The notes: generated from the letters alone by a model not told the origin. A stretch of 32,000 nucleotides of DNA from Pseudodesulfovibrio piezophilus C1TLV30 (GCF_000341895.1 NC_020409.1:600001-632000), one strand, 5' to 3'. Positions 5,277-28,373 are shown, counted from the stretch's first letter. Numbers and translations are program-made.

Positions 5277-5280
5277 CACA

Positions 5281-5389: not shown

Positions 5390-5391
5390 CA

Positions 5392-5407
5392 TGGCACACC
5401 TGTTGCT
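5392..5407 (+). promoter_or_regulatory. Sigma-54 (RpoN) promoter of the frd-fum-mae-transporter operon
   Basis: The sequence is TGGCAC (5392-5397), ACCTG, TTGCT (5403-5407), an exact match to TGGCAC-N5-TTGCW. It lies between a sigma-54 activator gene and frdC. Confidence 0.8.
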
Positions 5408-5456
5408 TATTTGTCACTCGTTGCGATCCAATTTCATTTAAGGAGGAGGTTTGGAA

Positions 5457-6253: not shown

Positions 6254-6266
6254 CGAGGTTCATTCT

Positions 6267-8147: not shown

Positions 8148-8171
8148 CCCGGTTTAAAAAAGGAATCCATC

Positions 8172-8912: not shown

Positions 8913-8914
8913 TT

Positions 8915-9751: not shown

Positions 9752-10308
9752 TGGCTGAATACAAACTCACAACTCCATTGACGGATGAAGATATCAAACA
9801 ACTCAAAGCCGGAGATGTCGTGTTCTTGAGCGGATACATCTATTCCGCGCGAGATGCCGCTCACAAAAAACTCATAGATCTACTGGATGAAGATAAAGAA
9901 TTGCCATTCAAGCTGGAAGGCGCAGCAGTGTATTATGTCGGACCAAGTCCGGCTCCCCCTGGCCGACCAATCGGTGCTGCCGGTCCTACCACGAGCTACC
10001 GAATGGATTCCTATGCGCCAAGATTGCACAGCCTTGGACTGAAAGCGACCATTGGAAAAGGAAAGCGCAACGATGAAACCCGTCAAGCCATGCAGAATCA
10101 TACTGCAGTTTATTTTGGCGCAACGGGTGGAGCTGGTGCTCTTCTCTCGAATTCCATCGTCAAATCCACTGTTATTGCATTTGACGAACTCGGTCCCGAA
10201 GCTATTCGTGAGATGAAAGTCAAAGACTTTCCACTTCTTGTCATCAATGACTCTCATGGCGGGGAGCTTTATGCCGTCCCGGATCGCAAAGCTGCAGGCA
10301 TTGAATAA
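9751..10308 (+). CDS. fumB: Class I (Fe-S) fumarate hydratase, beta subunit
   Basis: Motifs are SGYIYSARDAAHKKL, VGPSPAPPGRPIGAAGPTTSYRMD and IGKGKR. I prefer ATG 9751, which has GAGGAGG at 9734-9740 and overlaps the alpha-subunit stop as TAATG, over the GTG at 9715 in the track. Confidence 0.85.
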   Translation: MAEYKLTTPLTDEDIKQLKAGDVVFLSGYIYSARDAAHKKLIDLLDEDKELPFKLEGAAVYYVGPSPAPPGRPIGAAGPTTSYRMDSYAPRLHSLGLKATIGKGKRNDETRQAMQNHTAVYFGATGGAGALLSNSIVKSTVIAFDELGPEAIREMKVKDFPLLVINDSHGGELYAVPDRKAAGIE

Positions 10309-10334
10309 CAAAATCTAACTACAAGGAGATAGAA

Positions 10335-11657
10335 ATGGCTTTATTTACCAAACAGGAAGCTCTCGATTACCACTCCATGGGGAGAAAGGGGAAAATCGAA
10401 GTTGTCCCAGTCAAACCTTGCGCAACACAAAAACACTTATCCATGGCATACAGCCCTGGTGTGGCTGAAGCCTGCCTTGAAATCGCTGAAGATGAGACAA
10501 AATCCTATGAGTATACTGCACGAGGCAATCTGGTTGCAGTTATTTCCAATGGAACAGCGGTTCTTGGATTGGGAAATATCGGCGCAGCAGCGGGCAAACC
10601 GGTTATGGAAGGCAAAGGTGTGCTCTTCAAGGTCTTTGCCGACGTTGACTGCTATGACATCAACCTCGATGTGACCGATCCTGACAAACTCATTGAAATT
10701 GCAAAATCAATGGAACCGACTTTTGGTGGTATCAATCTCGAAGATATCAAATCTCCGGAATGCTTCTACATTGAGGAGACTTTAAAAAAGGAAATGAACA
10801 TTCCTGTCTTCCATGACGATCAGCACGGCACAGCTATTGTGACTGCCGCAGGCATGATGAATGCCGTGGAAATTTCAGGAAAAAAAGCTCAGGACCTTCG
10901 GGTTGTCGTCTCAGGCGCAGGGGCCTCGGCCATTGCATGCACCAATCTATACCGAAACATGGGAGTCAAACCTGAAAATATTGCCATGTTTGATTCACGT
11001 GGACATATTAACAAGTCTCGCACTGACTTGAATAAATTCAAACAACAATATGCTACGGATATCGAGTATGGATCTCTTGCTGAAGCCATGGTTGGTGCGG
11101 ACTGCTTCCTCGGCTTATCTGTCAAGGACATGGTGTCCAAAGACATGGTCAAATCCATGAGTGACAATTGCCCGATCATATTTGCCTGCGCCAACCCTGA
11201 TCCGGAAATAACATACAACGACGCCAAGGAGGCCCGCCCGGATTGCATCATGGGCACAGGTCGCTCCGACTATCCAAATCAAGTCAACAATGTACTTGGA
11301 TTCCCTTTTATTTTCCGTGGAGCGCTTGATTGCGGAGCAACTGCCATTACGGAGGAAATGAAGCTAGCGGCAGCCCAAGCCCTTGCAGACCTGGCCAAGG
11401 AAGAGGCTCCTCAATCCGTATGCGATGCTTATGGCGTCGATAAACTTGAATTCGGTCGTGACTATGTCATCCCCAAAGCGCTTGACCTTCGTCTGATCGA
11501 ATATGTTTCCGTGGCAGTGGCCAAGGCCGCCATGGAGGCTGGCATTGCACGAAAGCAACTCAATCTTGATGAATATCGGAAAGAGTTGCGTCAACGCATT
11601 GCTGACTCCACGAAACGAGTGAGTTCCTTTGTGGATTCATACGACCTTGGGATTTAG
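10335..11657 (+). CDS. NAD(P)-dependent malic enzyme, short form without a PTA-like domain
   Basis: Motifs are [62 protein letters not shown] and [15 protein letters not shown]. The RBS AAGGAG precedes the start. Confidence 0.9.
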
Positions 11658-11668
11658 CATCAATCCTT

Positions 11669-11696
11669 CCGGGCGGGGAGTTGCGGCCCTGCCCGG
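11669..11696 (+). other. GC-rich intercistronic hairpin between the malic enzyme and transporter genes
   Basis: CCGGGCGGGG (11669-11678) pairs with CCCTGCCCGG (11687-11696), with one G-U pair and an 8-nt loop. No T-tract follows, so processing, stabilisation or attenuation is more likely than full termination. Confidence 0.35.
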
Positions 11697-11778
11697 CCCT
11701 GAAGACCTCAGGGAGCCAGCACTGGGATTGCTGTCCAACACGCGGTGATGAACACCGCAAGACAAGAGAGGAAAAACA

Positions 11779-13320
11779 ATGAGTGCTCAAGCTGCAGAGA
11801 GCGGAAATGGCAAAATCATCGGGTTTATTTTAGGCCCCGTCATCTTTGTCTTAATGCTCATCATTCCGGCTCCGGAAGGCATGAAAGTCGAAGCATGGCG
11901 GGTAGCAGCCGTCACTGCTCTCATGGCCATCTGGTGGATCACCGAAGCGATTCCCATTCCTGCGACATCGCTCCTCCCTATCGCCATGTTCCCCCTGCTC
12001 GGGATCATGAAATCTGCGGCCGCGACCGCTCCTTACGCCAACCATCTTATTTATCTTTTCATGGGTGGTTTTTTCCTGGCTGTGACTATGGAACGATGGA
12101 ATCTGCACAGACGTGTCGCCCTCTACACTATCCGTGCAATAGGCACCAGCCCCGGACGAATGATCATGGGATTCATGGTCGCCACGGCCTTTCTGTCCAT
12201 GTGGGTCTCCAATACCGCGACCACAATGATGATGGTCCCTATCGGAATGGCTGTCATCCAACAGGCAACAGGCTTTGAATCCAGTGATCTCCGTTCCAGC
12301 ACCAATACCGGGCCGGAAGCGAACTTTGGAAAATGCCTCATGCTGGGTATCGCGTATGCAGCCTCCATGGGTGGAGTCGGCACTATCATTGGTACTCCAC
12401 CAAACACAGTCATGGCAGGTATGGTCGAAAAAATGTTTGGTGTTGAAATAGGATTCGGCCAATGGATGCTCTTCGGAGTTCCTCTTGCCACCATTATGGT
12501 CCTTTTGTCCTGGTTTATATTGACGAAATGGCTCTTCCCCATGGGAAGCATGCAAATTGCCGGTGGGGACAAGATTATTAATGATGAAGTCAAGAAACTT
12601 GGTCCCATGTCATCAGAAGAAAAGAAAATTGTAATCGTAGGCTGCTTTGTCGCCGTATTCTGGTTGGCACGTGGCTTTCTCAAAAAAGTTCCTTTCATCA
12701 TCGATGCCATGCCCCACTTCGGGTACATCCATGATGCAACAATCGGTATCCTTGGTGCCTTGATTCTGTTCGCTCTGCCTACAAACTTCAAAAAAGGTGA
12801 ATTCCTTCTGGATTGGAAAACAGCAGTCAAAATCCCTTGGGATGTCATCTTGCTCTTTGGTGGAGGTCTTGCCATTGCTAACGGTTTTGCAAAGACAGGA
12901 CTTGCCTCCTATATAGCTTCTCAACTTGGAGCTTTAGAAGGAACAAGTATTCTCATTTTTGTGGCTGTTGTTGTCTTGATCACTATCTTCCTGACGGAAA
13001 TAACTTCAAATACCGCTACGGCAACTCTGCTTGTCCCAATCATGGGAAGTGCAGCCATTGCCATGGGAGTCCATCCATACGCTACAATCGTCGGAGCTTG
13101 TGTCGCTGCATCATTTGCCTTCATGCTCCCGGTTGCCACCCCTCCAAATGCCGTTGTCTTCGGCAGTGGATGTGTTTCAATCAAACAAATGGCAAAAGCC
13201 GGTTTATGGTTGAATATCCTTGGAACCATTCTAATCACGGCATTTGTCGTATACTTCCTGCCCGTCATCTGGGGTGTAGACCTCAATGTCGTACCGGATT
13301 GGGCTGTCATGCCTAAATAA
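11779..13320 (+). CDS. DASS/SLC13-family anion:cation symporter, probably a C4-dicarboxylate transporter
   Basis: The 513-aa protein is polytopic. It has the two hairpin-tip motifs SNTATTMMMVPI and SNTATATLLVPI, plus GTPPNT and ATPPNA. It is the last gene of the frd-fum-mae operon. Confidence 0.85.
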   Translation: MSAQAAESGNGKIIGFILGPVIFVLMLIIPAPEGMKVEAWRVAAVTALMAIWWITEAIPIPATSLLPIAMFPLLGIMKSAAATAPYANHLIYLFMGGFFLAVTMERWNLHRRVALYTIRAIGTSPGRMIMGFMVATAFLSMWVSNTATTMMMVPIGMAVIQQATGFESSDLRSSTNTGPEANFGKCLMLGIAYAASMGGVGTIIGTPPNTVMAGMVEKMFGVEIGFGQWMLFGVPLATIMVLLSWFILTKWLFPMGSMQIAGGDKIINDEVKKLGPMSSEEKKIVIVGCFVAVFWLARGFLKKVPFIIDAMPHFGYIHDATIGILGALILFALPTNFKKGEFLLDWKTAVKIPWDVILLFGGGLAIANGFAKTGLASYIASQLGALEGTSILIFVAVVVLITIFLTEITSNTATATLLVPIMGSAAIAMGVHPYATIVGACVAASFAFMLPVATPPNAVVFGSGCVSIKQMAKAGLWLNILGTILITAFVVYFLPVIWGVDLNVVPDWAVMPK

Positions 13321-13419: not shown

Positions 13420-14184
13420 ATGCGCTCAAAATCGAAGATAATTCCGATCATATTGGTAGCTGTTCTTCTCTTGGTGGTAGCTATTTTCGGCTACGTTCAT
13501 CCAGGAAAAACACAACACATGCCAGTACGGATACTTTTTGAAAACAATGGGGGGAAAGTCATATTCTCCCACCTGATACACCACCGGGATTACAAAATAG
13601 ATTGTGCCACATGTCATCATGACAAAAAACAGAAACCTCTCTCACAAGATGACACTGCGTTACATTGTGGCTCCTGTCACCCGAATGAATTTAATGAAGA
13701 ATTCATTGCCAGTCACATGGATTCCTTTCCAGATGAAACATACTGTGTCCGATGCCATCATACTGAATTTGCCGAAGTTATCTTTAATCACGAAGAACAC
13801 AAAGAATATGCTGACGACTGCTCTGATTGTCACCATGGCAAAGAAATAGAACCCACCCCTCAGCGATGTTCTCACTGCCATAAGTCCCATGATATCAATG
13901 GACTGATCAGTATGCGACAAGCAGGACATCAAAGCTGTGCAAATTGTCATGAGGATATGTTTGAGACTGGATTATCAAGCTGCAAATCATGCCATGTCCA
14001 AGTGGATATGACCAAATATGAAGGAGACTATACATCCTGCAATTCATGCCATGAAGCCGAAGCACGAGAATTGGTTCTTCCACGTATGAATGCATTTCAT
14101 GATCAATGCCTCTCCTGTCACGAAAAAGAAGGAGCTGGCCCATATGGTCCCGACGATTGCAACAAATGCCACATTAGTAGGTAA
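13420..14184 (+). CDS. dhcA: Membrane-anchored decaheme cytochrome c heading the rnf operon (DhcA-like)
   Basis: There are ten CXXCH motifs in 254 aa: CATCH, CGSCH, CVRCH, CSDCH, CSHCH, CANCH, CKSCH, CNSCH, CLSCH, CNKCH. An N-terminal hydrophobic anchor or signal is present (IIPIILVAVLLLVVAIFGYV). The RBS GGAGAGG precedes the start. Confidence 0.9.
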   Translation: MRSKSKIIPIILVAVLLLVVAIFGYVHPGKTQHMPVRILFENNGGKVIFSHLIHHRDYKIDCATCHHDKKQKPLSQDDTALHCGSCHPNEFNEEFIASHMDSFPDETYCVRCHHTEFAEVIFNHEEHKEYADDCSDCHHGKEIEPTPQRCSHCHKSHDINGLISMRQAGHQSCANCHEDMFETGLSSCKSCHVQVDMTKYEGDYTSCNSCHEAEARELVLPRMNAFHDQCLSCHEKEGAGPYGPDDCNKCHISR

Positions 14185-14192: not shown

Positions 14193-15299
14193 ATGAATAT
14201 CCAAGATATCCTTCCAATTAAACAGGCGGAATTCACCCTGATGCAATATTGTCCCCTGGTGACATGTGGGCAAACCGTCAAACGAGGGCAAAGGTTGGCG
14301 ACCTCTTCAATCCAAGGCATGGGTGATATCCATTCACCCGTGGCAGGGCGAGTCAGCCATCTTGATTCATTCCGTATCCGTATAACAGCCGAAGGTAACG
14401 AAGAAGTAGATTTTACTGATCTCAATAAATTCAAAGGACAGCAACTCTATAAAAAACTTCTTGAACTTGGAGCCGACATTCCTCCCATAGCCGAGGTCGA
14501 GACTCTTATCATCAATAGCGTTGATGCAGAAATTGGTGTTCTGACTCGTAAGGAACTTCTGGTTACGTCTCAAGCCCCTCTTGAATGTGGACTTGAAGTC
14601 ATTCAAACCCTCTACAAACCAGAACTGACTGTCATGGCAACACTCAAAGGCACATCAAATTCACTGGGAAACCTCCTCTGCGTCGAAATCTCGGACCAAT
14701 ACCCGGCAGGACTTGATCCCCTGGTAGCCTTAGCCGTAACCGGCATTGAATCACCAGAAAAGACACTCGTGGTTGACTTGGAAACGCTATTCCACATTGG
14801 CCGAATTATGGAAACCGGACTCCCTTTATTTGAAACAATGGTCACAATTGGTAAAGAAGCACACATTGTCCCTCTTGGCTTGGCAGTCGGTGACATTTTA
14901 GAACATTTTGGAGAAAAATTAGTTGATCACGACAGGATCGTCCTAGGAGGCGCTCTGCGCGGTGCAGCTGCGGCATCAGCGACGCAAGGAGTAGATCGAA
15001 AGACCAATGCCATTACACTTATTCGAACCCCTGTCCCAATCGCACTGGATGCGGCCTGTGTTGGGTGTGGAGAATGTGTCCGACACTGCCCCGCCCGTCT
15101 CGATCCTGCCATGATTACCAGCTATGCAGAATTTGGCCTCTATGAAAAAGCTGCCGAAGAATTTGTAAACACTTGTTTTGAATGTGGACTCTGTGGCTTT
15201 TTTTGCATCGCACACCGCCCCATGCTCCAGTATATACGCTTAGCAAAAAAGGAATTGGCCCTTGGTACAGTCAAATCCAGGGAGGAGGGAGCACTATGA
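14193..15299 (+). CDS. rnfC: RnfC-like subunit, short, with a degenerate nucleotide-binding region
   Basis: The RnfC N-terminal barrel motif GDIHSPVAGRV is present. The C-terminus has a 2x[4Fe-4S] region (CVGCGECVRHCP and CFECGLCGFFC). The gene sits before rnfD. Where canonical RnfC has GLGGAGFP and ECEPY, this protein has ELGADIPP and DAEIG. Confidence 0.8.
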   Translation: MNIQDILPIKQAEFTLMQYCPLVTCGQTVKRGQRLATSSIQGMGDIHSPVAGRVSHLDSFRIRITAEGNEEVDFTDLNKFKGQQLYKKLLELGADIPPIAEVETLIINSVDAEIGVLTRKELLVTSQAPLECGLEVIQTLYKPELTVMATLKGTSNSLGNLLCVEISDQYPAGLDPLVALAVTGIESPEKTLVVDLETLFHIGRIMETGLPLFETMVTIGKEAHIVPLGLAVGDILEHFGEKLVDHDRIVLGGALRGAAAASATQGVDRKTNAITLIRTPVPIALDAACVGCGECVRHCPARLDPAMITSYAEFGLYEKAAEEFVNTCFECGLCGFFCIAHRPMLQYIRLAKKELALGTVKSREEGAL

Positions 15300-16246
15300 A
15301 GCCAATTATCCCATTTCATCTGACAGTATCTGTCCCGCCCCATCGTCATTACGGCACTTCAATACGCGGCAGGATGTTTGCCATTCTACTGGCTATGCTT
15401 CCGGCAGCAACCATGGGGCTAGCCAACTATGGCATGCCAGCTCTTAGGGTCATGTGTCTTTCTATGAGTGCTGCAATTTTCACAGAAGCTCTCTGTCATT
15501 GGCTTATGGAAAGTAAAAGTGAACTTGAGAATCTCCATGCCTTTATCGTGGGATTATCCTTTGCATTCCTCTTACCGGCATCAGCACCTTGGTGGCTTGT
15601 CACTTTTGGAAGTGCCACTTCCATAATTCTCGGAAAAATGATTTTTGGCCCCCTCGGTGGAAGCCCTTTTTGTGCTCCTCTCATCGGATGGGCGGTTTGC
15701 CGAATCTCATGGCCTGCTTTCATGGATATTGATGCTTCCATGCTTTCTGCCGACCTGACATTCCCCCTGGCCCAACTCAAGGACTTCGGACTGAACTCGG
15801 TCATGATAACCGATACAAAACAACTTTTTCTGGGCAAACAGCTTGGGGGATTAGGTGCTGTTCAAATAGCCGGAATCTTGCTTGGTGGCATTATCCTCGT
15901 GGCTAAGAGGCATGTTTCATCCATCATTCCAATGGGGGTCATCGGCGGAGTCTGTATCACCGCTGGACTCTTCAACATGCTCAATCCAAACATTTACGCA
16001 ACACCCGGCTTCCACCTCCTGACCGGATCAACACTTTTCGGAGCCTTTTTCCTCGCAACCGATGGTTCATCCTCACCCAACAGACAAATCCCCATGCTCC
16101 TCTTCGGCTTACTCATCGGGATAATGATTGTTCTTATTCGAATTTATGGTTCATACCCGGATGGCGTCCCTTTTGCCATTTTAATAGCAAACCTTTTTAC
16201 TCCGGTTTTCGAGCGAATTCGCCCCCGGCCCTTTGGTGTGAGGTGA
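15296..16246 (+). CDS. rnfD: RnfD, polytopic membrane subunit
   Basis: ATG 15296 overlaps the rnfC stop as ATGA and is preceded by AGGGAGGAGGG. The N-terminus has SVPPHRH, and the remainder is multi-TM. The track start at 15182 lies inside rnfC. Confidence 0.85.
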   Translation: MKPIIPFHLTVSVPPHRHYGTSIRGRMFAILLAMLPAATMGLANYGMPALRVMCLSMSAAIFTEALCHWLMESKSELENLHAFIVGLSFAFLLPASAPWWLVTFGSATSIILGKMIFGPLGGSPFCAPLIGWAVCRISWPAFMDIDASMLSADLTFPLAQLKDFGLNSVMITDTKQLFLGKQLGGLGAVQIAGILLGGIILVAKRHVSSIIPMGVIGGVCITAGLFNMLNPNIYATPGFHLLTGSTLFGAFFLATDGSSSPNRQIPMLLFGLLIGIMIVLIRIYGSYPDGVPFAILIANLFTPVFERIRPRPFGVR

Positions 16247-16249: not shown

Positions 16250-16825
16250 ATGAAAGAAATGATGAAAATGATGCTTGTTCTTTCTCTTATCTGTGGCTTT
16301 GCAGGGATTTCTCTTGCCGCACTGAAGGAGATCACCTCACCTGTAATCGAAGAGCAGGTACTGACCTTTGTTCAGGCTCCGGCAATTGAGTATGTGCTGA
16401 AGAGCCACGACAATGACCCCATAAAAGACCGAAAAAAATATTCTCTGAATACTCGAGTAGTGACAGTATTTCCAGGCATAAAGAATGGAATCCTCGAAAG
16501 CATAGCATTTGAAACTTCTGGCAAAGGATATGGCGGAAATATCGGTGTCATGGTTGGTTTTGATATCTCTACTCAAACTCTTTCAGGCATTGGCATCACA
16601 ACCCTGAAAGAAACTCCGGGCCTTGGTTCCCGTGTTGCCGAACATGGTTATACGACACAATTCAGAGGCCACCCAATCCAATCCATAGCTCTCAAAAAAA
16701 ATGGTGGAGATATAGACGCTGTAGCAGGGGCAACCATCTCGTCAACCGGCACAGTCGCTGCGGTTCAAGATGCAATATCTCTCTTTATGCAACTCAAAAC
16801 AGAACTTGCCGACGGCTGGTCCTAG
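16250..16825 (+). CDS. rnfG: RnfG, FMN-binding subunit
   Basis: It has an N-terminal anchor (MMLVLSLICGFAGISLAAL), an FMN_bind-type domain, and the flavinylation motif DAVAGATISSTG. Confidence 0.9.
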   Translation: MKEMMKMMLVLSLICGFAGISLAALKEITSPVIEEQVLTFVQAPAIEYVLKSHDNDPIKDRKKYSLNTRVVTVFPGIKNGILESIAFETSGKGYGGNIGVMVGFDISTQTLSGIGITTLKETPGLGSRVAEHGYTTQFRGHPIQSIALKKNGGDIDAVAGATISSTGTVAAVQDAISLFMQLKTELADGWS

Positions 16826-16854
16826 GCTGACAAATGCCTCATTCGGAGAAGACA

Positions 16855-17535
16855 ATGAATCAATTATGGAAAGAATTTTCCAAAGGACTCTGGAAAGATC
16901 TCCCCCCCTTCAAACTGGTCCTCGGCCTCTGTCCAGTCCTTGCTGTCACGAATACGACTCAAAATGGCCTTGGCATGGGGGTGGCTGTTATCTTTGTACT
17001 CACCCTCTCAAACCTCGTGGTTTCATTACTACGAAAGATAATTCCCTCGAAGGTCCGTATTGCCTGTTTTATTGCTATCTCCGCTTCGCTTGTCGTGGCG
17101 GTTGAACTTCTTATGCAAGCATTTGCTTATCCTCTCTACCAACAACTCGGCATCTTTGTTCCTTTGATAGTGGTAAATTGTATAATCCTCGGGCGAGCTG
17201 AAGCTTTTGCTTCCAAAAATTCCCCACTTATGGCCATGGCCGATGGCATGGGGATGGGGGTCGGATTCACCATGTCGCTCACGTTTCTCGGGGCTCTTCG
17301 TGAAATTCTTGGAACCGGAAAACTCTTTGGTACGTACGTTGCCTGGGGAGACTTCGAACCCGTCGGATTAATGGTCCAGGCACCTGGAGCTTTTGTCAGC
17401 CTCGGAATTCTACTCGCCTTGATGACGTTTGTTGAAAACATACAGCGAAAACGCAGAGGGTTAGCCGCAATAGAAGGTCCTACACACGATTGCGGAGCGT
17501 GCGGCGGATGTGGCAAAGCGTCAAACTGTTCATAG
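16855..17535 (+). CDS. rnfE: RnfE membrane subunit with a Cys-rich C-terminal tail
   Basis: Motifs are LGLCPVLAVT and VNCIILGRAEAFA. I prefer ATG 16855 (GGAGAAG RBS) over 16834. The tail reads THDCGACGGCGKASNCS. Confidence 0.85.
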   Translation: MNQLWKEFSKGLWKDLPPFKLVLGLCPVLAVTNTTQNGLGMGVAVIFVLTLSNLVVSLLRKIIPSKVRIACFIAISASLVVAVELLMQAFAYPLYQQLGIFVPLIVVNCIILGRAEAFASKNSPLMAMADGMGMGVGFTMSLTFLGALREILGTGKLFGTYVAWGDFEPVGLMVQAPGAFVSLGILLALMTFVENIQRKRRGLAAIEGPTHDCGACGGCGKASNCS

Positions 17536-17548: not shown

Positions 17549-18124
17549 ATGCAAGATTACTTTCTTCTCTTTATTGGTGCAATGTTCGTCAACAACATTG
17601 TTCTGGCCCAATATCTCGGGAATTGTCCTTTCATAGGCACATCCAAAGAGTCAGGTGTTGCAATCGGCATGGGTGGAGCCGTTGTCTTTGTCGCAGTTAT
17701 GGCCACAGGGATTACATGGTTGGTTCAACACCATCTGCTTATCCCCTTTGGACTCGGTTATCTTCAAACATTGGCCTTTATTCTGGTTATTGCAGCATTA
17801 GTCCAATTTGTAGAAATGTTTCTCAAAAAAATGATTCCTCCTTTATACAAATCCCTAGGCATATTTTTACCTCTCATTACAACAAATTGTGCAGTCATGG
17901 GTATCGCTCTGATCTGTCAGCGAGAGGAATTCGGTCTGCTCCGATCCGTACTTTTCGCCTTTGCTTCCGGACTTGGCTTCATGCTCGCTCTGGTTCTTCT
18001 CGCTGGAATTCGTGAAAAACTGGCCGTTCGAAGACTCCCAGTATCCATGAGAGGAACGCCTATCGGTTTGATAATGGCAGGGCTGATGTCCCTGACTTTT
18101 TTCGCTTTCAAGGGAATGATTTAA
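17549..18124 (+). CDS. rnfA: RnfA membrane subunit
   Basis: Motifs are NNIVLAQYLGNCPFIG and ITTNCAVMGIAL. The 191-aa protein has six hydrophobic helices. Confidence 0.9.
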   Translation: MQDYFLLFIGAMFVNNIVLAQYLGNCPFIGTSKESGVAIGMGGAVVFVAVMATGITWLVQHHLLIPFGLGYLQTLAFILVIAALVQFVEMFLKKMIPPLYKSLGIFLPLITTNCAVMGIALICQREEFGLLRSVLFAFASGLGFMLALVLLAGIREKLAVRRLPVSMRGTPIGLIMAGLMSLTFFAFKGMI

Positions 18125-18181: not shown

Positions 18182-20287
18182 ATGATATTAATATCAGGAC
18201 TCACTCTTTTCAGCATAGGTCTTGGAGCTGCTGCAATATTGGGTATAGCTTCGAAACTCCTCTACGTAAAAGAAGATCCACGGATTAATTTGATTGAAGA
18301 GTCCCTCCCCGGAGCCAATTGCGGTGGCTGTGGCTTCCCTGGGTGTTCAGGTGCAGCAGCAGCAATTGTGGCTGGCAAGGCTCCTGCGACAGTCTGTATT
18401 GTTGCCGACTCTGAAATGAGTCTGCTTGTTGCAGGAATTATGGGGCAGGAGGTTATTGAAAGAGAACCGGAACTCGCTATCCGGGATTGCTCAGGAGGAA
18501 TGCGTGCATCCGATTCCTTCCATTATGAAGGAGCACATGACTGCCGAGCCGCCCATCTCCTCTATGGTGGTTCAAAATCCTGTCCTGAAGGATGTCTCGG
18601 CCTGGGAACCTGTATGCGGGCCTGCCCTTTCGATGCTATCCAAATGAATGACCAGAATCTTCCAATCATTGATCCATTGGCATGCAAGGCATGTGGAAAC
18701 TGCGTTGACGCCTGCCCTCGTGGAGTTATTGGTGTAGCTGGAATCTCTGCTCGTCTGCTCCATCTCAACCTCACATCAGACTGTCTTGCCCCATGTCGCC
18801 AAAAATGCCCTGCACAAATAAATATTCCCAGATATATTGAACAGATAAAATCTGGTGATTACAATGGTGCGATTATGACTATCAAAGAGCGTAATCCTCT
18901 TCTTCTAACGTGTGGACGAGTTTGTCCCCGCCCCTGCGAGACTGAATGCCGCCGTCAATATGTGGATGAGACCGTCGGTATAAACATGCTCAAAAGGTTT
19001 GTGGCAGATAGGGAACTTCATACAGGAAAACACCTCCCTATTTCCTGCGCCAAAGATACCGGGAAAAAAGTCGCCATCATCGGCGGAGGTCCAGCAGGCC
19101 TCTCATGCGCTTATTTTCTACGTCGACTGGGGCATCAACCAACCATTTTTGAAGCAATGCCAAAACTTGGTGGGCAGACCCGCTATGGCATTCCGGAATA
19201 TCGCCTTCCTAAAGCAGATCTTGATTGGGAGATTCAAGGCATACTCGATCTTGGGATCGAAGCGAAAATGAATACAAAATTCGGTGTTGATTTTACCATT
19301 GAGACACTCAAAAAAGACAACTTTGAGACTATCTTCATTGGTATTGGAGCTTGGCAAGCTTCAGGTATGTATGCAGAAGGAGAAGACCTGAATGGTGTCA
19401 TGGGCGGTATCGAATTTCTCACTGCACACGCCATGGGACAAAAGATTGAAACAGGAGAACATGTCATCGTCGTAGGAGGAGGAAATACCGCTATTGATGC
19501 TGCGAGGACCTGTATTCGTCTCGGGGCACAGGTCACTCTTATGTATCGACGAACTCGTGCTGAAATGCCTGCTGATATGGAAGAAATTATTGGAGCAGAA
19601 GACGAAGGAGTCCAGTTCAAGTTTTTGGCAGCCCCTGCGCGAGTCATTGGAGATGAAAAGCACCACGCCACTCATTTGGAGTATTATGAGATGGAACTGG
19701 GAGAACCAGATGAATCTGGTCGGCGAAAACCTATCAAGAAAGAAGGCTCTGAACAACGTATGTGTGCAAATCTGATTATCCCGGCCATAGGACAAAAACC
19801 AGATCTCAAGTGTCTTTATGAAAATGAAGAAGAAGGAAGCTGCCTTTTGGAAACAACCCGATGGCAAACAATTGTTGCAGATTCCGAGACTTTCGAAACA
19901 GCTATACCAGGAGTCTTTACTGCCGGAGATGTCTATACTGGACCTGATTTGGTCATATCGGCAATTGGCGATGGCAGAAAAGCCGCACGAGCCATGCACT
20001 ACCATATGACAAAGGGCATTATTCCTCTCTCCGACCAGACACAAACAACAATGATCCCATATACGTTATTCAAGGAAGTTAGTGTTAAAGAAAAGAAAGA
20101 ACGAGCGACTCTTCCTCTCCTTTGTTATGGCGAGGAAAGAAATTGTACATTCAATGAGGTAGAAGGGACTCTTTCGGAGAGACAAGCGCAAAAAGAGGCA
20201 GATCGCTGCCTTCGCTGCGGCTTGCTCTGCTATGATGGCGACTCTGCACAGGAAACTCAGGGAGTTTTGAACACATTTGAAGAATAA
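18182..20287 (+). CDS. rnfB: RnfB fused to a GltD/NfnB-like FAD- and NAD(P)H-dependent oxidoreductase module
   Basis: Residues 1-195 are RnfB: a TM helix, NCGGCGFPGC, and a 2x[4Fe-4S] region (CPEGCLGLGTCMRACP and CKACGNCVDACP). Residues ~196-610 are GltD-like: CRQKCPAQINIPRYI...CGRVCPRPCETEC, the FAD fold VAIIGGGPAGLSCA, the NAD(P)H fold VVGGGNTAIDAAR followed by MYRRTRAEMPA, LGEPDESGRRKP, and GVFTAGDV. The C-terminus has EADRCLRCGLLC. Confidence 0.85.
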   Translation: MILISGLTLFSIGLGAAAILGIASKLLYVKEDPRINLIEESLPGANCGGCGFPGCSGAAAAIVAGKAPATVCIVADSEMSLLVAGIMGQEVIEREPELAIRDCSGGMRASDSFHYEGAHDCRAAHLLYGGSKSCPEGCLGLGTCMRACPFDAIQMNDQNLPIIDPLACKACGNCVDACPRGVIGVAGISARLLHLNLTSDCLAPCRQKCPAQINIPRYIEQIKSGDYNGAIMTIKERNPLLLTCGRVCPRPCETECRRQYVDETVGINMLKRFVADRELHTGKHLPISCAKDTGKKVAIIGGGPAGLSCAYFLRRLGHQPTIFEAMPKLGGQTRYGIPEYRLPKADLDWEIQGILDLGIEAKMNTKFGVDFTIETLKKDNFETIFIGIGAWQASGMYAEGEDLNGVMGGIEFLTAHAMGQKIETGEHVIVVGGGNTAIDAARTCIRLGAQVTLMYRRTRAEMPADMEEIIGAEDEGVQFKFLAAPARVIGDEKHHATHLEYYEMELGEPDESGRRKPIKKEGSEQRMCANLIIPAIGQKPDLKCLYENEEEGSCLLETTRWQTIVADSETFETAIPGVFTAGDVYTGPDLVISAIGDGRKAARAMHYHMTKGIIPLSDQTQTTMIPYTLFKEVSVKEKKERATLPLLCYGEERNCTFNEVEGTLSERQAQKEADRCLRCGLLCYDGDSAQETQGVLNTFEE

Positions 20288-20358
20288 GGACAAAATATGC
20301 TTTCCCAGAAAGTAACATGACGCAGTATTCCCTCGACAACAATACGGCGCTCATGTCC

Positions 20359-20386
20359 GGGAGGGTTTTGCTGCGAAAACCCTCCC
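20359..20386 (+). terminator. Hairpin terminator after the rnf operon
   Basis: GGGAGGGTTTT pairs with AAAACCCTCCC in a perfect 11-bp stem with a 6-nt loop. The downstream T-tract is weak. Confidence 0.55.
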
Positions 20387-20458: not shown

Positions 20459-20486
20459 TTGACCATCAATACTATACGAGTATCTT
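20459..20486 (+). promoter_or_regulatory. Possible sigma-70-type promoter for ackA-por
   Basis: The pattern is TTGACC (20459-20464), N16, TATCTT (20481-20486), about 50 nt upstream of the ackA ATG. This is a pattern match only. Confidence 0.3.
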
Positions 20487-20538
20487 GGCACCCTGTCTCC
20501 TGTCACACACTTGGATACAGGCAAAAAGGATTCCTGTT

Positions 20539-21738
20539 ATGAACATTCTCGTTATCAATTGCGGCAGTTCTTCATTGAAATACCAGCTTCGAAATATAAA
20601 CACCCAGAGAGTCATGGCGAGCGGCGTGGTGGAACGGATAGGTGAGTCCATGGGCCAAATCACACAAAGATCTTTTCCAGACAAATGGCCTGATACCAAG
20701 GATACGGAAGAATTGCCCATTCTCAATCACGAGGCTGCGATGAAGCTTATGGTTTCAAAACTCACCAATGGAGTTATCCAATCCCCTCATGAAATCGACG
20801 CAATAGGACATAGAGTTGTTCAGGGGGGTGAATCTTTCTCTCACCCAGTATTGGTCGATGAAAATGTCATGAATACGATCAAAGATAATATCCCACTCGC
20901 CCCCCTTCACAACCCTGCCAACCTCATAGGCCTTGAACAGGCAATGATCCTGTTCCCCGAAACACCAAATGTTGCAGTATTTGATACCGAATTCCATCAA
21001 ACACTTCCAAGGCATGCCTATATGTATCCTGTGCCGAAGATATTTTATGAACAGTTCAAGGTACGCAAATACGGCTTTCATGGCACTTCACATAAATATG
21101 TTAGTAAAACAGCATCAGTCTTTATCGGACAAAAAATTGAAGAGACCAGTCTCATTACTGTGCATCTTGGTAATGGCTGCTCCATGGCTGCCATAAAAAA
21201 TGGTAAATGCATTGAGACTTCTATGGGCTTGACTCCGTTGGCTGGCCTCATGATGGGGACTCGATGTGGAGATATTGACCCGGCTTTTCATATTTTTCTT
21301 GCAAAAAACAAAGGATTACCCCTCTCCGAGATTGATATATTACTCAATAAATCAAGTGGATTATTAGGAATATGTAGAAAGAACGACATGCGTGACATCC
21401 ATGAAGCCCGGCTTCACGGTGACGACGATGCACAGCTTGCTTTCGAGATGTTTACCTACCGGGTCAAGGCAACCATCGGTGCCTATCTTGCGATCCTCGG
21501 ATCGGTGAACGCCATTGTTTTCACTGCTGGCATCGGAGAAAATGATCCTGATGTCAGGTCTATGGCATGTGATGGTTTAGAGAATTTCGGTATCAATATT
21601 GACCCCACAAAAAATAATGAAAAAACCGCCGAGGCACGGTATATTAATACTGAACAGAGTCGGATCAAAGTTCTCGTGGTCCCCACCAACGAGGAATTAG
21701 AAATCGCGAAAGCCACGGCAGAAGTCGTCAATGACTAA
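20539..21738 (+). CDS. ackA: Acetate kinase
   Basis: Motifs are MNILVINCGSSSLKYQL, IGHRVVQGG, FDTEFHQTLP, YGFHGTSH, HLGNGCS, GIGEND and NEELEIA. The start is taken at ATG 20539, not the track start at 20485. Confidence 0.95.
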   Translation: MNILVINCGSSSLKYQLRNINTQRVMASGVVERIGESMGQITQRSFPDKWPDTKDTEELPILNHEAAMKLMVSKLTNGVIQSPHEIDAIGHRVVQGGESFSHPVLVDENVMNTIKDNIPLAPLHNPANLIGLEQAMILFPETPNVAVFDTEFHQTLPRHAYMYPVPKIFYEQFKVRKYGFHGTSHKYVSKTASVFIGQKIEETSLITVHLGNGCSMAAIKNGKCIETSMGLTPLAGLMMGTRCGDIDPAFHIFLAKNKGLPLSEIDILLNKSSGLLGICRKNDMRDIHEARLHGDDDAQLAFEMFTYRVKATIGAYLAILGSVNAIVFTAGIGENDPDVRSMACDGLENFGINIDPTKNNEKTAEARYINTEQSRIKVLVVPTNEELEIAKATAEVVND

Positions 21739-21770
21739 GGGCGTAATCCCCAGAATATATACGTAATTGA

Positions 21771-25394
<3,624 letters not shown>

Positions 25395-25453
25395 AAGGAC
25401 CACGAGTTCCATTATAGCAAAATGAGAGGGTAAATCCCCCTCTTTAACTGTGT

Positions 25454-25485
25454 AAAGTGCCTCCTGCTCATGCGGGAGGCACTTT
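25454..25485 (+). terminator. Hairpin terminator after por
   Basis: AAAGTGCCTCC pairs with GGAGGCACTTT in a perfect 11-bp stem with a 10-nt loop. Confidence 0.65.
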
Positions 25486-25628
25486 CATATATGCAAGCAT
25501 CAGACAAAATCAATTTATTAGATTATGATAACTATATCACACTGACCCTGTTGAGACTTGAATAATTCGAGCACATTTCAAGATCACCAACTCTGCCACA
25601 TGGTCCATGTCCTTGTTGGTCGAAGCAT

Positions 25629-25658
25629 AAAAAAAAGGGAGGACATTATTGCCCTCCC
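25629..25658 (-). terminator. Rho-independent terminator of the YgiW-like gene
   Basis: On the minus strand the sequence reads GGGAGG, a 10-nt loop, CCTCCC, then TTTTTTTT. Confidence 0.75.
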
Positions 25659-25682
25659 CTTCTTCAATCAACACTTCAACTC

Positions 25683-26027
25683 TTAGTTAATGGTATTAAC
25701 AGCACACGCCTGAACTTCAGTGTACATGAAGTTTTGAACGATCATGCCTTCCACCTGCACCTCATTCTTTTCATTGACAGCCTGTTGTATTCCAGCATCA
25801 TTCACATAAAGCAGCAATTCGCCTGTATTGTCTGCAAACAGAAACTCATTGTCCTTAATTTGGCGAACAAAATGCCCATTCAATACAACACTGGTGTCAA
25901 TGCCAGAAACCTTTGCTTCCGCAACAGATGTAGCCTTGTATGGCCCAGCGGCATAAGATTCCTGGGATGAAAAAATGAATGCCGATATCATAAGAAACAG
26001 CACAAAAAATATTCCAGAAGTTTTCAT
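25683..26027 (-). CDS. Periplasmic OB-fold stress protein, YgiW/BOF family
   Basis: The signal peptide is MKTSGIFFVLFLMISAFIFSSQESYAA. The mature part follows the E. coli YgiW pattern (TSVAEAK..VVLNGHFVRQIKDNEFLFADNTGELLLYV...VQVEGMI). The start is taken at ATG 26027, not 26102. Confidence 0.75.
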   Translation of the reverse strand: MKTSGIFFVLFLMISAFIFSSQESYAAGPYKATSVAEAKVSGIDTSVVLNGHFVRQIKDNEFLFADNTGELLLYVNDAGIQQAVNEKNEVQVEGMIVQNFMYTEVQACAVNTIN

Positions 26028-26294
26028 TGTATTATCCTCAAAATTTGAATTGTCTCTTTTAATCTGCCAGGACTTTCCTGACTCACGTCTAAACGATAAC
26101 ACATCTTAATCTTTTATCCAGATTTTTTTTCATGCTTAACATATTGGAATAACAGAATATTATAATATATTCTTTATTTTGACTGATTAGTCAATCAAAA
26201 AAATATCTTTAGTCACCTTCCTATGACAATCCAATTGAGAAATACCTGCACCAGAGCAAAACACATTTCAATAACAAATTTTCTTGCCCTCCCC

Positions 26295-26330
26295 AAAGAA
26301 AAGCGCCCGAAAGAAGAGTCTTTCGAGCGC
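26295..26330 (-). terminator. Rho-independent terminator of sodN
   Basis: On the minus strand the sequence reads GCGCTCGAAAGA, CTCT, TCTTTCGGGCGC, then TTTTCTTT. This is a 12-bp stem with one G-U pair, starting 25 nt after the stop codon. Confidence 0.8.
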
Positions 26331-26355
26331 GACCTGACGGTACACAAAATACCGA

Positions 26356-26811
26356 TTAGTGCTTATGCTCAGGGTAATACTCAAGAAGAGCTTTGACGTA
26401 TCCCTCAAGAGCATCCACTGGCTCTATTGAAGCATTTTGCTTGGCCTTCATGGCTCCGACTATAACGGCATGATGCTTCTTTAAACGTTCAACATAATCT
26501 TTCTGATCCGCCTTGACTCGTTGAGTCAGGAAATAATCAGAAATGGTGCTGATAATTTTTTGAGCATGTATTTCTTTATTATCAACCCAACGAACAAACT
26601 GCTGACGAGACTGGATATCTGTTTTATCGACCAACTCCTGAAGCATGGTTACTGCTTTTCGTATAGTAGCAACATCTTCCAACAGAGCTTCTACGCGAGC
26701 ATTGTCATCGTAAATACCACAAGGAACTTGGCAATGAGCTAAGGCTTGACTCGGCAGCACAAGCAAAATCGCTATAAAAATTATGAAACTAAGACTCTTG
26801 AATTGTTTCAT
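26356..26811 (-). CDS. sodN: Nickel superoxide dismutase precursor with a Sec-type signal peptide
   Basis: The Ni-hook HCQVPCGIYD (consensus HCxxPCGxY) directly follows the signal-peptide-like sequence MKQFKSLSFIIFIAILLVLPSQALA. Downstream helices resemble Streptomyces SodN (KEIHAQKIISTISDYF). The RBS AAGGAG precedes ATG 26811. Confidence 0.85.
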   Translation of the reverse strand: MKQFKSLSFIIFIAILLVLPSQALAHCQVPCGIYDDNARVEALLEDVATIRKAVTMLQELVDKTDIQSRQQFVRWVDNKEIHAQKIISTISDYFLTQRVKADQKDYVERLKKHHAVIVGAMKAKQNASIEPVDALEGYVKALLEYYPEHKH

Positions 26812-27011
26812 TAAACTTCTCCTTGTACTCAACAGGAGCACGCTTTTTGTTGGACCGTACACATGCACAGCCTATGGAATTCCAACTTACTCTATATAAA
26901 AGATTCCAAAACACGTCTAGTAGCCGAAAAAATCTTCTCCTCAGCTCTGATTTTTCGTATGCTACTTCAATAACTTTAAACGATACCTTACAGTATTAAA
27001 ATGGATACTCA

Positions 27012-28373
27012 ATGCCACCAATAAATACTTCGATTTTCCAGCTACTCAAAATTGGTCCAGGACCTTCAAGCTCCCATACTATTGGTCCAATGAAAGCGGG
27101 ATTTGACTTCATGGACTTTGCTCGACACCTTCCACAGAAAGAGAAGGAGCGATGCAATACACTCGAAATACGTCTTTTCGGCTCCCTCTCAGCGACAGGA
27201 GAAGGACACGGTACTCGTCGAGCCGTCATGTCTGGCTTACTTGGCCATCTTCCACATACCTGCCAACCCAATATTCTTGAGCAATGTGATAATTTAAGCC
27301 AAATCTTTCAGCTGAACCTTGGCGGACTTGAAATTCCATATAGTCCAAGCGACATAATCTTTGACCAGGTTCAACATAGCTATCTGCATAGCAACACGAT
27401 GGTCTTTCGAATAAAAGCCGATAGTGAAGTAATTTGTGAACGAATTTATTTTTCAGTCGGTGGTGGTTTTCTGCGATGGCAAGGTTGGAAGGAACCAGAG
27501 CGTAGCCTTCCTCTCTATCCATACAACTCCATGGCTGAGTTAAAAAAGCACCTGAAAGAGAATCACATCCGCCTTCATGAACTTATTCTTGCAAACGAAC
27601 AGGCTCTTACTGGCAAGAGTCTTGATGAAATTAATGCTGGTTTAGACCAGATTATTGAAGTTATGGAAAACGCAGTTGAAACCGGCATATCAAGAGAAGG
27701 TTTCCTCCCAGGTGAAATAGGATTGAAGCGAAAAGCTTCTGTAATGTATGCGCGAGCCAAGGAAGAGCACTTTCAGGGACCAGGCTTCATTAAGGCACTG
27801 AACGCCTATGCCCTTGCCGCGTCTGAAGAAAATGCGTCAGGTCGTTGTGTTGTAACAGCTCCGACTTGTGGGGCAGCAGGAGTTATTCCCTCTGTCGTTT
27901 TCATGCTTAAACGACACATGGGCGCCTTACAGGAAGAGGTTCGTCAAGGATTACTTGCTGCAGTTGCGATTGGTTTTTTGTGTAAGCACAATGCATCAAT
28001 TTCCGGTGCAGAGGTCGGCTGCCAAGGGGAAGTAGGGGTCGCTTCGGCAATGGCTGCGGCTTTTCTGGCCTACGCTCGAGGCTATCGATTTCAGGTTACT
28101 GAAAATGCCGCAGAAATAGCAATGGAACACCATCTAGGCCTGACATGTGACCCTGTGGGGGGGTATGTTCAGATTCCCTGCATTGAAAGGAATGCCATGG
28201 GGGCAGTCAAGGCCTACAATGCCTATCTAATAGCTTCAACCCTTGATGAATCCTACCATATCGTCAATTTGGACAAAGCCATACATGCGATGGCACAAAC
28301 TGGACGCGATATGTCTCGAAAATACAAAGAAACATCTCTTGGTGGTCTGGCTTTGTCCATGACAGAGTGTTAA
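27012..28373 (+). CDS. sdaA: L-serine dehydratase (Fe-S dependent, single chain)
   Basis: Motifs are LKIGPGPSSSHTIGPM, TAPTCGAAGVIP, GAEVGCQGEVGVASAMAAA and CDPVGGYVQIPCIERNA. Confidence 0.9.
   Translation: MPPINTSIFQLLKIGPGPSSSHTIGPMKAGFDFMDFARHLPQKEKERCNTLEIRLFGSLSATGEGHGTRRAVMSGLLGHLPHTCQPNILEQCDNLSQIFQLNLGGLEIPYSPSDIIFDQVQHSYLHSNTMVFRIKADSEVICERIYFSVGGGFLRWQGWKEPERSLPLYPYNSMAELKKHLKENHIRLHELILANEQALTGKSLDEINAGLDQIIEVMENAVETGISREGFLPGEIGLKRKASVMYARAKEEHFQGPGFIKALNAYALAASEENASGRCVVTAPTCGAAGVIPSVVFMLKRHMGALQEEVRQGLLAAVAIGFLCKHNASISGAEVGCQGEVGVASAMAAAFLAYARGYRFQVTENAAEIAMEHHLGLTCDPVGGYVQIPCIERNAMGAVKAYNAYLIASTLDESYHIVNLDKAIHAMAQTGRDMSRKYKETSLGGLALSMTEC

Follow-up and report, generated by a model that had tools for sequence, protein, structure and literature searches.

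The Rnf complex considered here is encoded in 32,000 nucleotides of DNA from Pseudodesulfovibrio piezophilus C1TLV30 (NC_020409.1:600001-632000), a stretch that we call the window and to which all coordinates are relative. Its rnfB gene runs on in frame into a module of the GltD/NfnB family, an arrangement pointed out in a preliminary description of the sequence. The closest described system is the Tol2-type Rnf of Desulfobacula toluolica, for which PMC5109826, citing an earlier report, gives an RnfB of ~700 amino acids with nicotinamide adenine dinucleotide (NAD)-binding sites and an RnfC without the NADH-ubiquinone-oxidoreductase and SLBB domains. The same complex has been named Rnf2, is assigned to the core genome of the Desulfobacteraceae, and is abundant, constitutive and seen in proteomes (PMC11887813 and supplement); the cytochrome c3 clustered with it was suggested to be an extra electron entry or exit point (PMC11887813). 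The literature places Rnf2 in Dv. salexigens, of the Desulfovibrionaceae, too, and describes the Desulfovibrionaceae type as an A. woodii-like Rnf1 (PMC11887813). In a 2024 survey of the Desulfovibrionaceae, the fused gene was read as loss of rnfB and gain of a flavin adenine dinucleotide (FAD)-dependent oxidoreductase gene, and the cytochrome was drawn as cytoplasmic (PMC11434368).

Two further systems share part of this layout. The D. alaskensis G20 operon (dhcA-rnfCDGEABF) belongs to a sister clade and has the same frame, and Rnf and the NfnB-containing enzyme NfnAB-2 are each of importance to this strain on malate and fumarate, with NADPH (the phosphorylated, reduced form of NAD) attributed to malate oxidation (PMC4215793). 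Unlike the window, it has a plain RnfB of ~300 amino acids, keeps the NfnB-like function in a separate soluble bifurcating enzyme, and carries apbE (rnfF) after rnfB. The Rnf of Methanosarcina acetivorans also has a multihaem cytochrome c gene (MmcA) in its operon and makes no use of NAD(P) at RnfC, and the flavin mononucleotide (FMN) of its outer-face RnfG is the proposed cytochrome reductant (PMC4023990); it differs in having no pyridine-nucleotide module on RnfB and in its acceptor, methanophenazine/HdrDE.

The window complex is a member of the published large-RnfB type (Tol2-type or Rnf2). It joins ~200 residues of RnfB to ~500 residues of pyridine-nucleotide oxidoreductase in a protein of ~700 amino acids, its RnfC is without the NADH/FMN (Complex1_51K) and SLBB domains, and a cytochrome c gene lies in the cluster. 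It differs in having a decahaem rather than a 4-8-haem cytochrome, a Cys-rich tail on RnfE and a setting in a C4-dicarboxylate island, and in that related genomes carry two paralogous fused clusters, of which it represents one; moreover, the literature speaks of an NAD-binding site, whereas the window sequence points to NADPH. The architecture is thus already known and common in sulfate reducers. The preliminary description knew of no characterised Rnf of this kind, and its premise of novelty fails because the architecture is in the literature and widespread, although the type is indeed biochemically uncharacterised. What the present analysis adds is the permutation of the module, its predicted Cys3-Lys cluster, its affinity to NfnA and StnC, the clade-wide loss of the RnfD threonine and the RnfC site, and the C4-dicarboxylate context.

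Extent and frame of the fused rnfB gene

Positions 18182..20287 of the plus strand translate as a single unbroken open reading frame (ORF) of 701 amino acids. Residues 1-195 are RnfB and residues 196-701 are the GltD/NfnB-like FAD-NADPH module, in the same frame; nucleotide 18767, at which the preliminary description let the extension begin, is the start of residue 196, so that 18767-20287 corresponds to residues 196-701. The NCBIfam models for rnfB match residues 1-191, and the GltD-like models PRK12771 and PRK12814 cover residues 197-688. All the profiles that had been proposed for scanning (FeS, the Fer4 dicluster, Fer4_20 and Pyr_redox_2) were matched, and the preliminary claim of a complete module fused in frame past residue ~195 is borne out by Pfam and NCBIfam alike.

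The N-terminal part is an RnfB by domain content and by operon position. Hydrophobic residues 2-26, a helix in the AlphaFold model, correspond to the transmembrane segment, and they are followed by the Pfam FeS domain (PF04060) with C47, C50, C55 and C72, and by a ferredoxin dicluster (Table 1). These four cysteines are invariant in 40 fused sequences, as are all 14 cysteines of the RnfB part. Among solved structures, A. woodii RnfB (9eri_B) matches residues 13-184 with an E value of 8.9e-47 and 7zc6_B matches with 1.6e-40. The gene adjoins rnfA, in the order rnfC-D-G-E-A-B, with gaps of -4 to 57 nucleotides between the genes.

Continuity of the frame is seen well beyond this genome. More than 100 database proteins of 690-716 amino acids, including some from complete genomes, are 56-84% identical to the query over 94-100% of its length; directly 3' of rnfA, independent genomes hold 39 complete fused ORFs; and the RnfB/GltD junction, SARLLHLN-x-T-x-DC, is conserved across the homologues. 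Because of these co-linear homologues, independent fused ORFs and the conserved junction, the fusion is real and not a sequencing, assembly or frameshift artefact. The same search shows the fusion to be widespread.

Anatomy of the GltD/NfnL-like extension

Every motif quoted in the preliminary description was found and could be mapped: CRQKCP at residues 205-210, CGRVCPRPCETEC at 244-256, GGGPAG at 301-306, GGGNTAIDAAR at 432-442, YRRTRAEMPA at 455-464, LGEPDESGRRKP at 506-517, GVFTAGD at 577-583 and CLRCGLLC at 676-683. The residues GGGPAG, GGGNTA (432-437) and YRR (455-457) are invariant or nearly so among the fused sequences, in agreement with an FAD/NADPH-binding fold.

The CLRCGLLC motif had been described as extra, which does not hold. 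The Fer4_20 profile is matched at residues 202-281 from position 29 onward, and its positions 3-28 match tail residues 655-680 (E = 3.4e-4). Further alignments of the tail are with Pf NfnI-L and pig DPD, at their N-termini (6-46 and 14-83), and with NfnA (9bov_A) and StnC (8oh5_C), at residues 481-571; in the latter two, the domain order is the same. The two [4Fe-4S] ligand sets of the GltD/NfnB(L)/DPD-N family are complete only if the tail is counted. C676, C679 and C683 are invariant in the 40 fused sequences, the remaining tail cysteines are not, and the ORF ends 18 residues past C683. Because the Fer4_20 positions missing at 202-281 turn up in the tail, the CLRCGLLC segment is, on sequence grounds, the N-terminal part of the GltD Fe-S domain, moved to the C-terminus by circular permutation, and the source of distal [4Fe-4S] ligands. 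An additional cluster, or a second electron exit, at this segment was therefore ruled out; since the tail completes the same Fe-S domain, a single Fe-S chain would leave the FAD.

The best solved relatives in phmmer searches are NfnA of Caldicellulosiruptor NfnABC (9bov_A, E = 7.9e-127), archaeal NfnA (9n5u_A, E = 2.8e-121) and StnC (8oh5_C, E = 9.7e-117), with the NfnSL large subunit (5jca_L, E = 2.4e-86) and GltD (E ~1e-63) more distant. NfnA (9BOV/9BP5; archaeal 9N5U) and Sporomusa ovata StnC (8OH5) share with the window module the permuted order of Fe-S domain, FAD/NADPH domains and RCLxCG, the Cys3-Lys cluster and the NADPH motif. In NfnA of C. saccharolyticus, the first cluster after the FAD (A7) is bound by C108, C147, C151 and K170 (PMC11829005). 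An ungapped alignment to 9bov_A places these at C209, C248, C252 and K271, all invariant in the fused sequences, which would make them the (Cys3-Lys) ligands of the proximal cluster; C205, C256, C676 and C679, which are invariant as well, are the predicted ligands of the distal [4Fe-4S] cluster, with DPD used as a second reference in the mapping. At the lysine position, the window reads MLKRFVAD, versus RLERFVAD, with Glu, in T. maritima NfnB (4ylf_B).

The nucleotide-binding block VVGGGNTAIDAART..RLGA.VTLMYRRTRAEMPA (GGGNTAxDAART...YRRTRxEMPA) is near-identical to that of the NADPH-oxidising NfnA, StnC and Pf NfnI-L. The nucleotide at the GltD module is thus likely NADPH, as the preliminary description had surmised from the Arg pair. 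NfnABC has been described as taking in electrons through this NfnA module, a plain wire (NADPH-FAD-A7-A6-...), and as bifurcating at a distant FMN/cluster site (PMC11829005). By homology with NfnA and StnC, the RnfB extension would be a non-bifurcating NADPH dehydrogenase or NADP+ reductase. The surroundings differ: in NfnA and StnC, the module sits between an N-terminal domain predicted to be of [2Fe-2S] type and an Fdh/NuoG-like domain, and feeds a soluble bifurcating Bfu core, whereas the window module stands behind the transmembrane and Fe-S domains of RnfB and has no Fdh-like domain. No HydB/C-like genes (NfnB/C partners) are present among the annotated ORFs of the window.

The Fe-S domain of the module begins ~15 residues after the end of the RnfB dicluster domain. 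An AlphaFold2 model of the fusion, built from a 32-sequence alignment, exhibits a mean predicted local distance difference test score (pLDDT) of 63.7 and a predicted template modelling score of 0.52. The FAD/NADPH core reaches a pLDDT of mostly ~75-93, with a few weaker 10-residue blocks, and the Fe-S regions and the tail remain below 50.

RnfC and RnfD across loci

The preliminary description held that RnfC of this locus seems to have lost its own nucleotide site, and the loss of the FMN/NADH site from the RnfC sequence is confirmed. A Pfam scan of RnfC gave no Complex1_51K or SLBB match, the TIGR01945 match, at 129 bits, stays below the cut-off of 246, and the alignment to A. woodii RnfC begins only at residue 95 (opposite residue 151). 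The glycine loop (GGAGFP; canonical VGMGGAGFPTHVKL) is deleted at LLELGADIPP (14457-14486), and the ECEP motif is replaced at 14514-14546, where NGAECEPY has become NSVDAEIG. Both CxxCxxCxxxC motifs, with eight Fe-S cysteines, are present in this and every other locus compared. In RnfD of A. woodii, T156 is the covalent FMN attachment site (PMC11889175), and pairwise alignment places F156 of the window protein opposite it. Unlike the canonical ferredoxin:NAD+ Rnf of A. woodii and C. tetanomorphum, the window complex thus has neither the GGAGFP and NGAECEPY motifs of RnfC nor the T156 of RnfD.

The wider occurrence of these losses was assessed by an RnfA-based scan with one genome per species, which yielded 80 loci (L001-L080). 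RnfC is decayed in every Desulfobacterota cytochrome-linked Rnf locus examined, with fused or plain RnfB, and its Complex1_51K remnants score 17-36 bits, versus 173-190 bits in two Firmicutes controls (L072, L076). The position equivalent to RnfD T156 is Y, A, D or F in ~70 Desulfobacterota loci, again with either form of RnfB. The only loci with the threonine, in (A/P)TPL, are four of Firmicutes type (L050, L072, L074 and L076); in three of these (all except L074), RnfC is also complete and includes the canonical glycine loop, although L050 has no match to the ECEP regular expression.

The preliminary description had proposed correlating the fusion with the state of RnfC. In the 80 loci, decay of RnfC as a consequence of the fusion is rejected as a specific correlation: the plain-RnfB loci of Desulfovibrio, Bilophila and Mailhella (L011, L014-L029, L042) have an RnfC equally devoid of GGAGFP and ECEP, with Complex1_51K scores of 17-27 bits. 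For the D. vulgaris and D. alaskensis type, the statements on motif loss rest on 17-21 related plain-RnfB loci of other strains. These results suggest that both flavin sites of the RnfD-FMN/RnfC-FMN/NAD+ arm have been lost clade-wide and that the half made up of RnfB, RnfA/E and RnfG is intact. A limited look at the Rnf literature found no report of the clade-wide loss of the RnfD threonine. The plain-RnfB complexes of Desulfovibrio type are usually annotated as ferredoxin:NAD+ oxidoreductases.

Distribution and evolution of the fusion

In the 80-locus scan, fused RnfB proteins (~687-706 amino acids) occur in Pseudodesulfovibrio, Maridesulfovibrio and Salidesulfovibrio and across the Desulfobacterales (Desulfobacula, Desulfonema, Desulfobacter, Desulfatirhabdium and others). 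The loci of Desulfovibrio, Bilophila, Mailhella and Firmicutes have plain RnfB proteins (~280-340 amino acids). Among the best 150 clusters at 50% identity, six hold an RnfB of ~680-705 amino acids. The window RnfA is 86-88% identical to that of three loci of the scan (L001, L002, L049).

A neighbour-joining tree of the RnfB N-domain, which carries no support values, groups the fused proteins as one clade, sister to the plain RnfB of Desulfovibrionaceae. The concatenated RnfD+G+E+A tree (868 columns, 100 bootstraps) follows taxonomy: every replicate (100/100) unites the Desulfovibrionaceae, whether fused or plain, in one clade, and none (0/100) does so for all fused complexes. Taken together, the two trees suggest that the fusion is old and spans two orders. 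In the core-subunit tree, the plain complex of Desulfovibrio type falls within the fused ones, which is compatible with an origin of the plain Desulfovibrio RnfB by secondary loss of the module, depending on the rooting. Many NCBI records name the fused protein only "FAD-dependent oxidoreductase", and the RnfB part is therefore easily overlooked in annotation.

Proposed electron path and alternatives

With moderate confidence, we propose that the module is an entry port for NADPH (and ferredoxin) on the RnfB arm of a cytochrome-c-linked pump. The domains, conserved ligands, lost motifs, distribution and synteny are observed in the sequences, and we infer the cofactor content, NADPH preference, electron path, cytochrome partner, direction and ion coupling as follows. 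NADPH would give a hydride to the FAD of the module, from which single electrons would pass to the Lys-ligated proximal [4Fe-4S] cluster and on to the distal cluster. The distal cluster would pass them to the 2x[4Fe-4S] domain of RnfB and then to its membrane-proximal cluster, so that the fused RnfB would hold five [4Fe-4S] clusters altogether. The [2Fe-2S] center of RnfA/E, at the ion-coupling step, would be next (the cysteines matching its ligands are present in RnfA and RnfE by inspection), followed, in the periplasm, by the FMN of RnfG, the decahaem cytochrome encoded in the same operon and the pool of cytochrome c3. With the motifs for flavin attachment and binding gone from the RnfD/RnfC return arm, the decahaem cytochrome with the cytochrome c3 pool is most likely the other electron pole. 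The whole complex would then work reversibly as an NADPH(/ferredoxin):cytochrome c oxidoreductase that translocates ions. In this genome, NADPH may come from malic enzyme and reduced ferredoxin from pyruvate:ferredoxin oxidoreductase, with electrons going to the membrane for fumarate reductase or sulfate reduction. An NfnB-like module on RnfB would in this way hard-wire the job that soluble NfnAB-2 and Rnf do in D. alaskensis G20.

A wider proposal, which we offer more tentatively, is that the entire cytochrome-linked clade of Desulfobacterota, with large or plain RnfB, has left the RnfD-FMN/RnfC-FMN/NAD+ arm and works between the RnfB arm and periplasmic cytochromes. Only in the large-RnfB form would the nucleotide site have moved to the input arm, an Nqr-like re-plumbing with a GltD-type module that would yield an ion-coupled NADPH(/ferredoxin):cytochrome c oxidoreductase. 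Na+-NQR likewise has its nucleotide-flavin site on a single-helix input subunit that feeds the [2Fe-2S] center of RnfA/E-NqrD/E, and an RnfC/NqrA homologue without an NADH/FMN site. By this analogy, the polarity would be convergent, reached with an unrelated module: NqrF is of FNR type with FAD and [2Fe-2S], unrelated to GltD; NqrA is free of cofactors, versus two [4Fe-4S] motifs in the window RnfC; and NqrB is a quinone-reducing subunit with its covalent FMN retained, whereas the window RnfD is without the threonine. The nqr NCBIfam models score far under their cut-offs for the window proteins.

If this is true, sulfate reducers would have in this complex the direct link, so far missing, by which NAD(P)H electrons enter or leave their periplasmic cytochrome pool; how NAD(P)H electrons reach sulfate (or fumarate) reduction in these organisms has been called a long-standing mystery (PMC4215793). 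The plain-RnfB complexes of Desulfovibrio, now called ferredoxin:NADH oxidoreductases, would be without any NAD(H) site and may be descended from a fused form that lost the module. Confirmation would mean that Rnf annotation and metabolic models in the Desulfobacterota need revision. The hypotheses are in any case narrowed to a nucleotide that is probably NADPH, an entry wire of NfnA/StnC type in preference to a bifurcating Nfn head, and apparent clade-wide loss of the return-arm flavin sites.

Several points weigh against the proposed port and its cytochrome partner. The riboflavin-binding Asp of RnfD is conserved, which together with the retention of both [4Fe-4S] motifs by RnfC in all loci speaks against an RnfC arm that is merely defunct; a working RnfC arm might possibly have the GltD module itself as its partner. 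In D. alaskensis G20, which has a plain RnfB, dhcA mutants show almost no fitness defect and rnf mutants are affected (PMC4215793), so the cytochrome is not an obligatory partner there. Transfer from NADPH to cytochrome c3 would leave a small driving force for ion pumping, and, with the ferredoxin site and the NADPH site sharing an Fe-S wire, electrons could be exchanged in a short circuit that bypasses the membrane. Motif similarity is the sole basis for the predicted NADPH preference. The AlphaFold model gives no basis for cluster geometry, because the Fe-S regions and the tail score too low. Finally, the mode of action of the Tol2-type Rnf "awaits experimental verification" (PMC5109826).

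Some of these points would be accommodated by a canonical U-shaped circuit with a transplanted terminal site. Electrons would run from ferredoxin through RnfB, RnfA/E, RnfG and RnfD (carrying riboflavin or a non-covalent flavin) to the [4Fe-4S] pair of RnfC, on which the GltD module, still tethered to RnfB, would be docked in place of the lost FMN domain, making an ion-pumping ferredoxin:NADP+ oxidoreductase. This unites two roles named in the preliminary description, namely replacement of RnfC as the NAD(P)H port and conversion of the complex to NADPH. It is consistent with the retained RnfC motifs, the conserved riboflavin ligand of RnfD, the dispensable dhcA of D. alaskensis G20 (PMC4215793) and the contact between RnfC and RnfB in the A. 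woodii complex (PMC11889175). We nevertheless regard it as unlikely. The RnfD T156 equivalent is lost in ~70 loci, and the plain-RnfB sisters exhibit the same decayed RnfC and RnfD with no GltD module; because they are equally decayed, the RnfC arm must work, or fail, without that module. Electrical isolation of the module from RnfB is also improbable, given the short linker of ~15 residues to the RnfB dicluster and the wiring of the equivalent Fe-S domains in NfnA and StnC to neighbouring clusters.

A tethered ferredoxin:NADP+ oxidoreductase is similarly doubtful. Here the module would equilibrate ferredoxin and NADP(H) at the RnfB wire with no membrane passage, and the Rnf core would work as in the plain-RnfB relatives. 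Such a reaction has precedent in characterised [4Fe-4S]- and FAD-dependent Fnor enzymes, reported in a paper that also devotes a section to NfnB as a monofunctional enzyme. It would also fit the sharing of one wire by the ferredoxin and NADPH sites, and the genes for pyruvate:ferredoxin oxidoreductase and malic enzyme that flank the operon. However, an uncoupled short-circuit would waste the potential difference between ferredoxin and NADPH in energy-limited anaerobes, and an integral role in the pump fits better with a fusion that is ancient, strictly conserved over two orders and part of a constitutive core-genome complex in the Desulfobacteraceae.

The third role named in the preliminary description, an Nfn-like bifurcating head on a membrane ion pump, is disfavoured, and we consider it very unlikely. 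The FAD would split the electron pair of NADPH, one electron going uphill to ferredoxin and the other downhill to the membrane pump or cytochrome. The module is a homologue of NfnL, which carries the bifurcating FAD of NfnSL, and two acceptors of unlike potential, ferredoxin and cytochrome c, are plausibly at hand. Unlike NfnSL (NfnAB), though, the window module has no Glu as proximal ligand (K271 instead, as in NfnA and StnC), and no gene for an NfnS/NfnA-like small subunit with FAD and [2Fe-2S] is present among the annotated ORFs of the window. The homologous FAD of NfnABC is a non-bifurcating entry point, and a single Fe-S chain leaves the FAD. Of the preliminary interpretation as a whole, the NADPH port thus stands as likely, and the bifurcating head, the extra motif, a fusion-specific decay of RnfC and the novelty do not. 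Lastly, an assembly or sequencing artefact that joined rnfB to a separate gltD-like gene can be dismissed on the co-linearity described above.

Remaining operon genes and genomic context

The operon opens with the gene for the decahaem cytochrome, which ends 8 nucleotides upstream of rnfC, and a 4-11-haem cytochrome gene lies 5' of rnfC in most Desulfobacterota loci for which the upstream region was recovered. Coordinates and family matches of all features are listed in Table 1. A Cys-rich RnfE tail similar to HDCGACGGCGKASNCS is found in Desulfovibrionaceae, with fused and plain RnfB, and in some Firmicutes loci, and is absent from Desulfobacterales.

Table 1 Features of the rnf operon, the fused RnfB and flanking genes in the window.
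Feature	Coordinates	Strand	Evidence and remarks
Malic enzyme, best family match NADP-dependent type	10335..11657	+	NF009501, E 1e-162
DhcA-like decahaem cytochrome c, N-terminal membrane anchor or signal; first gene of operon	13420..14184	+	Ten CxxCH; Pfam Cytochrom_CIII and Cytochrome_C7
RnfC, 368 amino acids, without FMN/NADH site, with both [4Fe-4S] motifs	14193..15299	+	CVGCGECVRHC 15057-15089; CFECGLCGFFC 15174-15206
RnfD	15296..16246	+	PF03116, E 1.4e-83; Phe156 (15761-15763) at covalent-FMN threonine site
RnfG	16250..16825	+	NF045876 RnfG_DVU2794, 290 bits; flavinylation motif DAVAGAT kept, Thr162 (16733-16735)
RnfE, Cys-rich C-terminal tail	16834..17535	+	PF02508, E 2.5e-64; tail HDCGACGGCGKASNCS at ~17485-17532
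RnfA	17549..18124	+	TIGR01943, 252 bits, over its cut-off
RnfB module of fusion	18182..18766	+	Residues 1-195: transmembrane helix, FeS domain, 2x[4Fe-4S] ferredoxin domain
RnfB FeS domain	18305-18400	+	Pfam FeS (PF04060) at 42-73, E 1.6e-11
RnfB ferredoxin dicluster domain (residues 134-183)	18581-18730	+	Pfam Fer4_9 and Fer4_10 at 135-183
Fe-S domain of GltD/NfnL-like module	18785..19024	+	Fer4_20 at 202-281, profile positions 29-111, E 4.5e-22
FAD and NADPH Rossmann domains	19064..19975	+	Pyr_redox_2 at 295-598, E 8.5e-31
Rossmann motifs	19082-19099; 19475-19507; 19544-19573	+	GGGPAG; GGGNTAIDAAR; YRRTRAEMPA
C-terminal tail, predicted permuted first Fe-S segment	20144..20230	+	F-x-E-V ... 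EA-x-R-C676-L-R-C679-G-L-L-C683
ackA	20485-21738		TIGR00016, 476 bits
Pyruvate:ferredoxin oxidoreductase	21780..25394	+	TIGR02176, 1956 bits

The operon is embedded in an island that extends over 2148-13320 on the upstream side and 20485-28373 on the downstream side. Upstream, the order is histidine kinase, sigma-54 response regulator, frdCAB, fumAB, malic enzyme and a DASS dicarboxylate symporter; downstream, it is ackA, pyruvate:ferredoxin oxidoreductase and L-serine dehydratase. The window copy thus has a likely NADPH source, malic enzyme, on one side and an enzyme that reduces ferredoxin, pyruvate:ferredoxin oxidoreductase, on the other. The order frdCAB-fumAB-malic enzyme-DASS/dhc-rnf/(pta)-ackA-por is kept in L001-L003, L049 and L081; for malic enzyme it is seen in L001-L003 and L081, and for ackA and pyruvate:ferredoxin oxidoreductase in L002 and L081.

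Related genomes hold more than one fused cluster. Pseudodesulfovibrio tunisiensis (CP094380.1) has two: L081, the ortholog of the window copy with 80% RnfB identity and the same island, and L082, with 59% identity, which adjoins Hdr/Flx-like genes (FlpD, CCG-domain, HdrA-like). Three fused RnfB paralogues (P0007, P0019, P0088) are present in Pseudodesulfovibrio sp. JC047. In L081, pta lies between rnfB and ackA, and it is missing from the window.

A G+C-rich hairpin, GGGAGGGTTTTGCTGCGAAAACCCTCCC, lies at ~20350-20385 in the 197-nucleotide gap 3' of rnfB. Its position suggests an end of the rnf operon at this point and separate transcription of ackA-por. The window rnfB is not followed by apbE/rnfF, unlike in the D. 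alaskensis rnfCDGEABF arrangement. The segment 26001-27000 exhibits a G+C content of 0.37, versus 0.43-0.52 elsewhere in the window, and its sole ORF (26356-26868, minus strand, 170 amino acids) has no NCBIfam match. At the start of the window, a 647-amino-acid ORF at 12-1955 combines a transporter-like N-terminal half with a weak match to ApbE (FMN transferase) at residues 353-619.

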